Assembly (NCBI GenBank): GCA_965218435.1
Contig: CBDCKW010000009.1
Location: forward strand, 2,368,001 to 2,432,000
DNA length: 64,000 nt
Reading direction: 5' to 3'
Source: Truepera sp.
GTDB taxonomy: Bacteria; Deinococcota; Deinococci; Deinococcales; Trueperaceae
Every line of letters begins with the position of its first letter. Positions within the stretch are counted from its first letter, which is position 1. The notes under the pieces are model-generated. The model was not told the DNA's origin. It was given only the letters and a program-made list of their open reading frames with translations, and did no database searches. Of this stretch, positions 11,888 through 15,764 are shown piece by piece. A program made the position numbers and the translations under genes.

Positions 11888-12613
11888 CTAGGTTCGCAGC
11901 AAGTCTCGAGCGGCGCGCACAAGGTCGGCGTTGTCAGCGGCAAGCCGTCCATCCGGCAGAACCGGCGTATCTTCTAAACCGGTTCGAATCCCGTGACCAC
12001 GAGATAGCGCCCGCTTACAAACTGCCTAACTAGCGATGAGGTCGCCGTGATGAACCTGCTCAAGCAAAATGTTAGCCCCGATAAGCACGTTTTCTATCGC
12101 GGCAGCGTGCGCGGTGGCCTCATCCGGGTCGGCCTCGAGCGGTTCGATGAGTACACGTACACACTGTTTAGAGAGACCCGAGCGCACGAACGCCTCTGCA
12201 TCTCCTACACTGAGCAACCCAGCTTCAATCCCGGCACCCCGCCGGAGGAGGAGATCGCACAGTTCCAGAATGCCTTCCTCTCCCTGATTAGCCGTTACCA
12301 AATCCGGTAGTTCTGTCCAAGCCTCTACGAGTGCAAAACGGCGCGACGGGTCAGGCTCGAGACCGGCCGAGGTTGTAAACGAGACAGGCACGCCAGGGCA
12401 AGCGTGACGCACGGCGCGCAGAGCAGCGGCACACGCTTCGGCTGCCAACGACTCCACATCTGAAGAATCGTAAGCGTGCAGGTGAATCACCCGCGCACCC
12501 ACAGCTACTGCTGCACGCGCCTCTTTAGCGAGTGCTTCCGGCATTCTTGGGACTCCTGGGTGTTCATCAACCGAACGCGAACCGTTAAGGGCGACTTGCA
12601 AAAGCAGTGACAT
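11888..12613 (-). pseudogene. 3-keto-5-aminohexanoate cleavage (BKACE/DUF849) family gene with one in-frame TAG
   Basis: ALNGSR, IHLHA; the frame continues past TAG at 12026-12028 as AVCKRALSRGHGIRTGLEDT...DNADLV to TAG at 11888. Confidence 0.8.
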
Positions 12614-12702
12614 ATCAAAAGTTTACAATGGTGTTCGAAAACAAGACTTTTTAGGTTAGACTGCGGGACATCTGTCAGAAACTTAGGGCGTAAAGTAAAA
12701 TC

Positions 12703-13104
12703 ATGCGCTACGTCATCCTTCTGCTTTTATGTTCGTCTCTAGCTGCCTGCCGCCCGCCGGAGCCTTCAAGTGAAAGTGCGGGGAGTGCTGCGGGCGAAGC
12801 GGGCGTTAAGGTCAGCCTCGAGCTCCCCAAAAAACCTGCGATTGGTCCGGCTCCGGTACGCGTTTACCTGTTAGGTGTAGATAATAAAGCTGTGACCGGC
12901 GCAACCGTTACGGTAACCGGCCTCATGACCCACGCCGGAATGGAACCTGTGATTGCCAAAGCGCCCCCAACTGAAAACGGCCTCTACCAGACCAAAACCT
13001 TTGACTTTGACATGGCGGGCGACTGGATTTTGCAAGCCGACGTGACGCTCCCAGACGGCAACGAAGTGCGTAAAGAGCTGAGCGTGACGGTTCCGGGGGG
13101 CTGA
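12703..13104 (+). CDS. FixH/YtkA-like Ig-fold lipoprotein with Met/His motif
   Basis: Lipobox LAAC; VTGATVTVTGLMTHAGM...GLY...FDMAGDW is the YtkA-like pattern. Confidence 0.8.
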   Translation: MRYVILLLLCSSLAACRPPEPSSESAGSAAGEAGVKVSLELPKKPAIGPAPVRVYLLGVDNKAVTGATVTVTGLMTHAGMEPVIAKAPPTENGLYQTKTFDFDMAGDWILQADVTLPDGNEVRKELSVTVPGG

Positions 13105-13106
13105 GC

Positions 13107-13418
13107 GTGAGTCGGTGGGCGAGGGCTTTAAGAGCGGGCGGTACGACGCTGCTGTTGGGCCTGCTCTGCACCGCCGCACTCGCTGCCCCTGCGCTTAGCA
13201 CGGTTCAAAATTTCGCGCATACGCATTCAGGTAGTACGCCGCACCATGTTCACCCGTTGTGCCTTTTACTCGGCGGGACCCCACCGGCTTCGCCCATTGT
13301 TGCAGCTGGGTCTATAAAACGTGACGACGCTCTCCCGTTTTACGTCATTTCTTTCGTCGCAGCCGAAGTCTTTACGGGTTCACGCAGCCGTGCGCCTCCT
13401 CCAAACGTCGAACCGTAG
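13107..13418 (+). CDS. Small exported His/Cys-rich protein with C-terminal RAPP motif (DUF2946/CruR/CutF-like putative arrest peptide)
   Basis: Signal-like N-terminus, HTHSGSTPHHVHPLC, C-terminal SRSRAPPPNVEP; starts 2 nt after the upstream stop. Confidence 0.7.
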   Translation: MSRWARALRAGGTTLLLGLLCTAALAAPALSTVQNFAHTHSGSTPHHVHPLCLLLGGTPPASPIVAAGSIKRDDALPFYVISFVAAEVFTGSRSRAPPPNVEP

Positions 13419-13439
13419 CCACTAGACGTTTTTTGCGCC

Positions 13440-15038
13440 TTGATTTACGGGGCAGAGTTGGAGGACATCATCACGACTAAGCAAGCTTATCCAGACACAG
13501 CGCCGGACAAAGTAGAGCTGCCGCTGCACCGCCCCAACCGCCCGGTTTGGCCCGCGCAACCTAAGGGTTTTGACCTCTTCCGGCTCCCCGGTCTGCGGCG
13601 GTTTTTTCGCTGGCGTTACGCCCGTTTCGTGTTTCAGTTACCGCTTTTGCTGCTGGCCGTGTTCGCCGTGGTAGACGGCCTCACCGGAGACCAATTAGCG
13701 CCGCGCAACATCGCCACGACGACGCTCTGGTTGCACTACCGGGGCCTGGTCGTGGTCGCACTCGCCGTTTTCGGTAACGCCTTTTGTTCCGCCTGTCCAC
13801 TCATGCTGACGCGGGGGTTGACGAGACAGTTGGAGCGCGTTTTGCCCCATAAGCTCAGCTGGCCCAGGGGCTTAAAAAATAAATATCTGGTTACGGCGCT
13901 GCTGCTCGCTTTCTTTTTATCGTATGAAGTGTTCGACTTTTGGGCCAGCCCGTTTTTAACCGCGTGGCTGGTGATCGGCTACTTTATGGGCGCGCTCGTC
14001 GTTGACACACTTTTTCCCGCCGGGACGTTTTGCCGTTACGTGTGCCCCCTCGGAAACTTCAACTTTACCTTTGCTACGGCCTCACCCACACAAATTGTAG
14101 CCGTCAACCCGGACGTGTGCAGCAGCTGTCACGATAAGCCGTGTTTGCACGGGCGTGAAAGCTACGCAGACGCGTCTCAAACCAAAGGACAAGCAGCGTT
14201 TATTCCGCTGTCACAGATTGAGCACGCGAACGGCTCCGGCTACTTTCCGGGCTGCGAAACCGACCTGATGGTGCCGACGATCACCTCGAACATGGACTGC
14301 ACCTTTTGTCTAAACTGTGTGCGGGCATGCCCGTATGACAACGTGGCGCTTACCACCCGGACGCCGGGGCTCGAGTGGACCCGTAACCCGTGGGCCAAAC
14401 GCGGCGGCTTCGCCGTTATCTTACTGAGCATTCTCCTAACCTTTTGGGGTCTCCTCAACGCCCTTGCGATGATCGGCCCGTTTTACAAGGGTGCAGAAAC
14501 CCTCTCAGCAGCTCTGGGAACGCGGAGTGAGGCGCTGCTACTCGCCGTCATCTTCGGCAGTGTCACCCTGCTCGGGTTCGGTCTGACTACGGCGATGAGT
14601 TTACTCGCTGACCGGTTAGGCGGCACAAAGAGCACGCTCCGACCGGCGCTCATGCGCTGGGGTTATGTCCTCTTGCCCCTCGGCTTCGGCTTTTGGGCGG
14701 CGCACTATCTGTTTCACTTCTCAACCGGGGCGCTCAGCATCGTGCCGGTATTTCAGCACTTTTTTGAGACCTGGGGCTTCGCCGTTGACCCGAATTGGCG
14801 ACTCTCGAGGCTCGTCCCAACCCACTGGCTCTTCCCTATCGAGGCAGGATTTGTCAGTGTCTACTCGCTTTTGGCGGTATGGACAGCGTTTCGGATTGCG
14901 CTCCGCGATTTCGGTCGGCGCGGCGTGCTCGCGCTCTGGCCGCCGCTCCTATTCGTTCTCCTGTTTGCGGCACTGTCACTATGGATACTCGCGCAGCCGA
15001 TGGAGATGCGCGGCACCATTTTCGGCCCGACGTTTTAG
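13440..15038 (+). CDS. Membrane polyferredoxin (4Fe-4S binding; CcoG/FixG/NapH-like); start codon uncertain
   Basis: CSACP, CRYVCP, CSSCHDKPC, CTFCLNCVRACP and many transmembrane segments. Confidence 0.85.
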   Translation: MIYGAELEDIITTKQAYPDTAPDKVELPLHRPNRPVWPAQPKGFDLFRLPGLRRFFRWRYARFVFQLPLLLLAVFAVVDGLTGDQLAPRNIATTTLWLHYRGLVVVALAVFGNAFCSACPLMLTRGLTRQLERVLPHKLSWPRGLKNKYLVTALLLAFFLSYEVFDFWASPFLTAWLVIGYFMGALVVDTLFPAGTFCRYVCPLGNFNFTFATASPTQIVAVNPDVCSSCHDKPCLHGRESYADASQTKGQAAFIPLSQIEHANGSGYFPGCETDLMVPTITSNMDCTFCLNCVRACPYDNVALTTRTPGLEWTRNPWAKRGGFAVILLSILLTFWGLLNALAMIGPFYKGAETLSAALGTRSEALLLAVIFGSVTLLGFGLTTAMSLLADRLGGTKSTLRPALMRWGYVLLPLGFGFWAAHYLFHFSTGALSIVPVFQHFFETWGFAVDPNWRLSRLVPTHWLFPIEAGFVSVYSLLAVWTAFRIALRDFGRRGVLALWPPLLFVLLFAALSLWILAQPMEMRGTIFGPTF

Positions 15039-15065
15039 CACTCTCGACTTGCAAAAGCTGTTACG

Positions 15066-15764
15066 ATGCCTGACATGTTGCGTTTAGGTCTGCTTGCTCT
15101 TCTACTCACTATGTCTCTGCAACTCGTACTGGCACAAACTGAACCGCTCCCCGAATGCGGCTACGAAGACCGTCCTGCTACGCTGACGAGCTACGACGAC
15201 TGGCCGTATACAGTGCTCGACACGCTCTACGCGCTGCCTGAAGATTACGCGCCGAGTGATTTGGAGCCCGTCACCTCGTTGGGCGTCGGCACCGACGCGC
15301 TGCAGCTACGCAGCTTGGTTATGCCCGATTTGAAGGCGCTGTTAGCAGCGGCTGAGGCTGATGGGATGGGGCTCGAGGTTCAGTCTGCGTACCGCTCATA
15401 TGGGTATCAGAAGCAGACGTTTGACTATTGGACAGCACAAGACGGCTACGCCGCCGCCCTAAAGAGCAGCGCCCGCCCCGGTCACTCGGAACATCAGCTC
15501 GGCACCGCGCTTGACTTCCGCAGTGCGGACGGCGACCCCGCATGGGATTTGGATGACTGGGCGACGACACCTGAAGGGGCTTGGCTTCAAGAACACGCCG
15601 CCGAGTTCGGTTTTGTGATGAGTTATCCGAAGGGTAAAGAGGCGCTGACCTGCTACATTTATGAGCCGTGGCATTACCGTTATGTCGGGCGTGAAGAGGC
15701 CGCTGCGGTGGCGGCGAGCGGTCTCACACTGCGCGAATGGTTGTGGGAGCACCAAACACCATGA
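15066..15764 (+). CDS. M15 family D-alanyl-D-alanine carboxypeptidase (VanY-like)
   Basis: SAYRSY, SARPGHSEHQLGTALD, YEPWHYRYVG; signal peptide. Confidence 0.93.
   Translation: MPDMLRLGLLALLLTMSLQLVLAQTEPLPECGYEDRPATLTSYDDWPYTVLDTLYALPEDYAPSDLEPVTSLGVGTDALQLRSLVMPDLKALLAAAEADGMGLEVQSAYRSYGYQKQTFDYWTAQDGYAAALKSSARPGHSEHQLGTALDFRSADGDPAWDLDDWATTPEGAWLQEHAAEFGFVMSYPKGKEALTCYIYEPWHYRYVGREEAAAVAASGLTLREWLWEHQTP

Follow-up and report, generated by a model that had tools for sequence, protein, structure and literature searches.

A probable arrest leader in Truepera whose proline codons are predicted to pair with the Shine-Dalgarno sequence of the following ferredoxin gene

A small gene of Truepera sp. 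appears to encode a metal-sensing arrest leader, the final proline codons of which are predicted to mask the downstream ferredoxin gene's Shine-Dalgarno (SD) sequence, so that a ribosome stalled at the motif RAPP would free the SD and turn translation on. I give this reading a probability of about 0.62. The arrangement is likely a stall-gated SD switch, a histidine-only variant of the CruR and CutF systems. The locus was examined within a window of 64,000 nucleotides, by which is meant the whole stretch of DNA analyzed (contig CBDCKW010000009.1 of assembly GCA_965218435.1). Coordinates refer to its forward strand, on which all features lie unless otherwise stated.

The leader gene (13107-13418) begins 2 nt past the stop codon of the preceding gene, ytkA, and encodes 103 amino acids: an N-terminal hydrophobic helix, a four-histidine motif, a linker, and RAPP followed by a further proline, with a tail of five residues past RAPP. 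The predicted metal site, HxH-x6-HxH (His38, His40, His47 and His49; 13218-13253), is invariant in all 23 aligned leaders, and so are Arg95, Pro97 and Pro98. Within the RAPP codons (13389-13400), conservation and the toeprints of other RAPP peptides (PMC10987492 and PMC12992588, in the portions available) predict a P site at 13395-13397 and an A site at 13398-13400. No cysteine is conserved among the 23, and neither CXXC nor CxxxC was found. Since the match to Pfam DUF2946 (PF11162) scores 20.5 bits, under the cut-off of 23.7, and CXXC is missing, I consider the protein DUF2946-like and not a member of that family, which only 1 of the 23 matches at all. AlphaFold predicts a helix at residues 2-31 and gives low confidence to the remainder (pTM 0.40), with no usable geometry for the histidine site. 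At 103 residues the protein is shorter than 150, and its hydrophobic helix at residues 2-31 may be an export signal or a transmembrane segment.

Homologues of the leader are found in 58 of 128 Trueperaceae genomes, and the named relatives all belong to that family; the leader profile found no match in the 198 genomes of other Deinococcota families that were searched. Sixty-three of the 67 places listed were examined. R-x-PP is present in 62 of the 63 loci, and 62 were kept, one having been dropped for want of the full histidine motif. The distance from the last histidine to R-x-PP is 44-47 residues in every one of the 62 leaders (45 in the window's), as determined by a script that permitted 39-51. 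The tree of leaders is a quick version, mostly unresolved. A scan of metagenomes yielded 6 loci, the leader lying directly upstream in 2. Several observations may be recorded beside these. The P-site proline codon is CCA in 26 of the 62 leaders, as against 12.0 expected, the leaders being kin and not independent. In L126-L129 the leader extends 45-52 codons beyond RAPP, and its stop codon overlaps the next start codon. A second leader of the family (L106, G000:C9:3058781-3059083) lies in the same genome, upstream of a CopC gene.

The first gene of the operon, ytkA (12703-13104), encodes a YtkA-like protein of 133 amino acids with a lipoprotein-type N-terminus (Pfam YtkA, E 6.8e-14, above the cut-off), and it directly precedes the leader in 24 of the 62 loci. 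A putative -10 box, TAnnnT (12691-12696), lies 6 nt before the ytkA ATG, and the motif occurs at equal distance in 5 of 8 loci. The ytkA transcript is likely leaderless, to judge from this motif, which would place the sensor second in the operon; leaderless mRNAs are described as common in Deinococcus deserti in the part of the report available (PMC4007540). Elsewhere around the locus, an open reading frame on the reverse strand (12026-12613) matches only positions 3-111 of the 274 in a BKACE-like profile and is possibly truncated, a form skipping 109 bases across the start of a VanY-type gene (15043-15153) is seen in contigs from each of the two runs, and strain variation is seen along the locus in contigs.

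Copper is the best guess for the metal because of what lies downstream of the leader in relatives and because of fusions found in homologues of the ferredoxin. Among 35 downstream proteins scanned, 6 were CopC, 4 CopD, 3 NosL and 3 of other families, and 19 had no match, so that 13 of the 35 belong to families of metal homeostasis. Distant homologues of the window's ferredoxin were fused to Caa3_CtaG in all four cases tested (L037, L057, L062 and L070, from records of Planctomycetota and Acidobacteriota). It is only through these fusions that the window's own target, a probably copper-related gene, is linked to the metal.

The preliminary description of this DNA claimed that the octamers at 13397-13404 and 13458-13465 are exact reverse complements, and so they are. 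It placed the anti-SD strand (13397-13404) in the RAPP proline codons, which is right for the second RAPP proline and the proline after it (13398-13403), the first contributing its last base only; the register of the helix is thus that of the predicted A-site codon and the codon that follows. The minimum free energy fold of 13370-13490 keeps seven of the eight pairs (13398-13404 with 13458-13464), absence of the pairing from low-energy folds having been named beforehand as one result that would count against it, and the mean pair probability of the helix is 0.84-0.87 over three fold windows. Of the SD-like sites ahead of the ferredoxin gene, the SD region (13458-13465, with GGAGG core at 13460-13464, a core shared by orthologues) is the strongest, at -9.3 kcal/mol, the next best reaching -5.0; the preliminary description had called it the only strong one. 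Anti-SD and SD are brought together by an inner helix (13413-13418 with 13445-13450, within 13413-13450) that includes the leader's stop codon, and a variant at 13448 found in contigs retains its inner-helix pair as G-U. The energy of the region 13370-13490 as a whole is ordinary (z of -0.42, with 67 of 200 shuffles equally good); this score is uninformative, and it is the helix itself that is specific.

Since CCT followed by any CCN codon complements GGAGG, a core of five base pairs comes cheaply, and the choice of codons was therefore tested. Opening GGAGG costs 8.45 kcal/mol in the native sequence, as compared to 4.2 +/- 1.05 in synonymous recodings of 13383-13415 weighted by codon usage, and GGAGG is hidden as strongly in only 4 of 400 weighted recodings and 1 of 400 uniform ones. 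The native proline triplet ranks 2nd of 64 for hiding GGAGG. In a crude gene set of the genome, CCT encodes the first proline in 7.7% of 2727 Pro-Pro pairs, and the native triplet of codons occurs in none of 204 Pro-Pro-Pro runs. The complementarity is real and probably functional.

With the first RAPP proline in the P site, the modelled footprint of the ribosome spans the whole anti-SD, as had been supposed. Opening 13458-13472 costs 9.5 kcal/mol in the free RNA and 4.7-5.7 with the footprint in place, so the modelled stall lowers the cost by 4-5 kcal/mol, or roughly half; a residual hairpin in the stalled state leaves 3-4 kcal/mol to be paid. For GGAGG the gain is 5.2 kcal/mol, as against no more than 2.1 in 28 neighboring gene pairs of this genome that served as controls. 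A ribosome placed at the stop codon gives a computed gain similar to that of a ribosome stalled at RAPP, and therefore only dwell time can tell the two states apart. For this reason the claim that the pairing independently supports arrest was not borne out: a terminating ribosome frees the SD equally well. I infer arrest from the conservation of RAPP and from the CruR-like spacing.

The downstream starts in relatives were set by hand with the sequences in view for 58 of the 62 loci; four were dropped. (In L113, the open reading frame after the leader resembles an inserted transposase, an impression from its appearance, and this locus was excluded from the counts.) The notion that the proline codons serve the whole family as anti-SD fails, for the first proline is CCT in 12 of 62 leaders, with 13.4 expected. 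It was rejected in favor of a trait of a sub-clade, CCTCC occurring at the Pro-Pro junction in 13 of the 62. A permutation based on duplexfold, a looser measure, gave a weak result (genus-level p=0.09); it was swamped by GC-rich pairing, and contiguous helices were therefore used instead. In a pre-chosen window around RAPP, 16 of 58 loci fall in the top 10% when contiguous helices to the SD are compared with those to GC-matched SDs of other genera (genus-level p=0.04). Windows not touching RAPP place 1-6 of the 58 in the top 10%, so only the footprint carries the signal. The best windows reach p=0.0008-0.0014, or about 0.01-0.02 after correction, the one beginning at the first proline giving genus-level p=0.0014; these were picked afterwards from the 12 tried. 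The synonymous null is exceeded at p<=0.05 by 11 of 58 loci, where about 3 are expected, in 5 of 22 genera, and L081-L084, L086 and L087 are included. Pairing between footprint and SD is thus enriched in a position-specific manner over the 58 relatives; the effect is modest, and most loci show nothing. The relatives are kin, not independent, and their tree is poorly resolved.

The form of the pairing differs from clade to clade. Eight loci combine CCTCC at Pro-Pro with a GGAGG SD, and the wobble base that follows CCTCC is paired in six of these and mismatched in two, the window's own locus being scored in its better register. Five of the six wobble pairs are Watson-Crick, with all four types represented (T:A, G:C, C:G, and A:T twice), and one is G-U. 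Six further loci carry CCTCC with less than the full GGAGG. Other clades pair codons that follow RAPP. Among them, the sister loci L118 and L120 (285 and 336 nt from the start) preserve a 13-bp helix in which a synonymous site carries a compensatory change. The helix measures 13 bp in L121, 11 bp in L105, 10 and 9 bp in L106 and L107 (252 nt separating the arginine from the start in L106), and 9 bp in L110 and L111, one pair being held as G-U. When 11 related loci were folded with the footprint, six gained at least 3.0 kcal/mol, two about 1.2 and three at most 0.5. The closest orthologues, L082 (-0.1) and L178 (-2.0), show no predicted opening of the SD under the footprint, contrary to what the proposal would lead one to expect. 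L178 uses CCC CCA; in its fold the stretch immediately 5' of the SD is paired to the proline codons, and GGAGG to codons upstream of RAPP, so that in the model pairing between leader end and ribosome binding site persists and opening is not predicted. Covariation, proposed in the preliminary description as a check, is seen as compensatory or wobble pairs in several relatives; the closest two, one of which has CCC CCA, show no gain. The RNA element shifts within a single family, and the geometry of the peptide stays fixed.

The best of the rival explanations, which I nonetheless consider unlikely, is that the arrest peptide is real and acts mainly on transcription, through access of Rho as in CruR or through a T-tailed hairpin, SD pairing being secondary. 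The genome encodes Rho, the 3' part of the leader is rich in C (C 0.36, G 0.21 over 13329-13406), and spacers are long, at least 160 nt separating RAPP from the start in 25 of 58 relatives. The preliminary description had pointed to a second stem followed by a T run, and it does exist: 13403-13409 with 13425-13431, an alternative stem of 7 bp (13403-13434) that closes a loop of 15 nt and comes with a T6 run. Its probability is 0.72-0.95 when the transcript stops at 13436 and 0.26-0.27 in the full transcript, in which the SD has been made. In L082 and L178, too, a hairpin precedes a T run; the T run is absent from L083 and L179. Against a role in termination, the loop is large and the stem takes up three of the six Ts, leaving three free; its energy is -5.9 kcal/mol with the three paired Ts and -2.4 kcal/mol without them, which makes for a poor intrinsic terminator by the usual standard of a stable GC-rich hairpin, a short loop and a free U tract; nor did a terminator scan list it, though that scan permits only loops of 3-8. 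The stem is likely a folding intermediate or a pause and is weak as a terminator. Furthermore, a transcriptional reading leaves the choice of codons and the covariation unexplained.

I find still less probable the possibility that the pairing is a by-product of Pro-Pro codons that happen to complement GGAGG, imposing a fixed low level of expression or ordinary translational coupling and no regulation by stalling. The unremarkable z-score of the region (-0.42), the lack of CCT enrichment in the family, the equal effect of a terminating ribosome and the lack of gain in the closest orthologues are all in keeping with such an origin. It is opposed by the rarity of equally effective synonymous recodings (4 of 400), by the four types of pair at one wobble site and the 13-bp helices with their compensatory change, and by the restriction of the signal to the footprint.

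The ferredoxin gene (13470-15038) encodes a multi-pass membrane protein resembling NapH, MauN and NosR in profile matches below the cut-offs. The preliminary description missed that the SD at 13458-13465 is followed by none of the start codons ATG, GTG and TTG. Initiation is probably at 13470, a near-cognate ATC, and the gene would then depend on its SD all the more. Five bases past GGAGG stand ATC in the window, ATT in L178, GTG in L082 and ATG in L083. Assembly error as the source of the ATC is unsupported: the one contig covering 13409-13639, possibly from the same sample, has no other letter there. An ATC start has been confirmed by proteomics in Deinococcus deserti, according to the available part of the report (PMC4007540). 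That the start is instead TTG 13458, served by the weak purine run 13449-13452 (SD energy -5.0) and itself masked by the helix in place of the SD, is very improbable, for although the window and L178 both have the TTG in frame and encode similar residues, L082 has a TAG stop at the equivalent triplet and a GTG 5 nt past GGAGG, and under the footprint the ribosome binding site of the TTG costs 8.5 kcal/mol to open, as compared to 4.2 for that of the ATC. In L083, L084, L085, L124 and L125 the SD-like site behind the leader opens a mini-ORF of 6-14 codons, the stop codon of which touches or overlaps the actual gene's start, and L179 resembles these loci. The mini-ORF suggests a second, coupling step.

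In the stall-gated mechanism that I favor, a leaderless transcript would yield YtkA, and ribosomes would run on into the leader, stalling with Pro97 in the P site, as the toeprints of other RAPP peptides indicate in the available parts of PMC10987492 and PMC12992588. At that point the histidine motif would be just out of the exit tunnel, where it may bind copper. The stalled ribosome would hold the anti-SD, leaving GGAGG free and ferredoxin translation on. Binding of the metal would likely alter the dwell time, and dwell time is what the switch would read. As to direction, I lean slightly toward scarce copper causing the stall (ON) and bound copper causing release (OFF), as in CruR, over copper-induced stalling like that of CutF, since the leaders of relatives stand ahead of CopC, CopD and NosL genes and the spacing equals that of CruR. 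A broader proposal may be made, though tentatively and with the odds somewhat against it: a cysteine-free, four-histidine family specific to Trueperaceae would sense copper in mid-operon, with an anti-SD in whatever synonymous positions lie under the stalled ribosome (in this clade the proline codons of the A site, in others the codons beyond RAPP or the stop codon), acting over distances up to about 330 nt and gating a near-cognate AUC or AUU start or a coupling mini-ORF.

The general mechanism has already been published for CutF, CruR and the RGPP leader of secDF2. Among titles and the openings of abstracts I found no paper on copper leader peptides of Truepera, nor one on DUF2946 that names such a peptide, and the supplements searched, among which the list of CutF-like proteins is not evidently included, contained no Truepera. 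The present case would extend copper-sensing RAPP leaders to a histidine-only family in Deinococcota. It also offers a compact test case, since functions of peptide and RNA share the same codons and are separable by synonymous changes.

The comparisons that follow draw on the portions of the cited reports that were available. CruR of Bordetella pertussis (Bp2923; DUF2946/PF11162) has 45 residues between its metal motif and RAPP (PMC9426467), and CruR-type RAPP arrest places the first proline in the P site (PMC12992588). The window's leader is like CruR in its metal motif, 45 intervening residues, C-terminal RAPP and position upstream of copper-related genes, and where CruR has an export signal the leader has its N-terminal hydrophobic helix (PMC9426467). 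It differs in that CruR has CXXC, Rho-dependent termination and a spacer of 162 bp, as opposed to four histidines, predicted release of the SD and 81 nt separating Arg95 from the start. The CutF-cutO system of Rhodobacter capsulatus is similar in having an exported DUF2946-type leader with a C-terminal proline run, where the stall melts a stem-loop that hides the SD (PMC9973294), but there the stem-loop lies in a 40-bp intergenic region, and here the anti-SD is inside the proline codons (PMC9973294, PMC8456105, bioRxiv 10.1101/2025.02.05.636593). CutF carries a CxxxC motif, and copper causes stalling for its detoxification operon (bioRxiv 10.1101/2025.02.05.636593). Published clusters of CutF-like proteins with histidine only precede HupE/UreJ genes, unlike the ferredoxin of the window.

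The preliminary description had invoked the logic of secM-secA and mifM-yidC2. The likeness to secM-secA holds, in that by computation the stem that sequesters the SD lies within reach of the stalled ribosome; the downstream gene is that of a membrane ferredoxin and not of a Sec or YidC component, and a closer match is found in CutF and in the leader of secDF2 with its RGPP. In the latter, uDF_RQH of Alteromonas naphthalenivorans, a RAPP-like arrest frees an SD-masking stem, as was shown with stem mutants (PMC10987492, PMC7897499). According to the available portion of PMC7897499, no hairpin that masks an SD was predicted for ApcA, ApdA and ApdP, which are peptides of the RAPP type. Finally, uDF_RQH, SecM-secA, MifM-yidC2 and VemP are monitors of protein export that lack a metal motif, in contrast to the leader of the window with its histidine motif.
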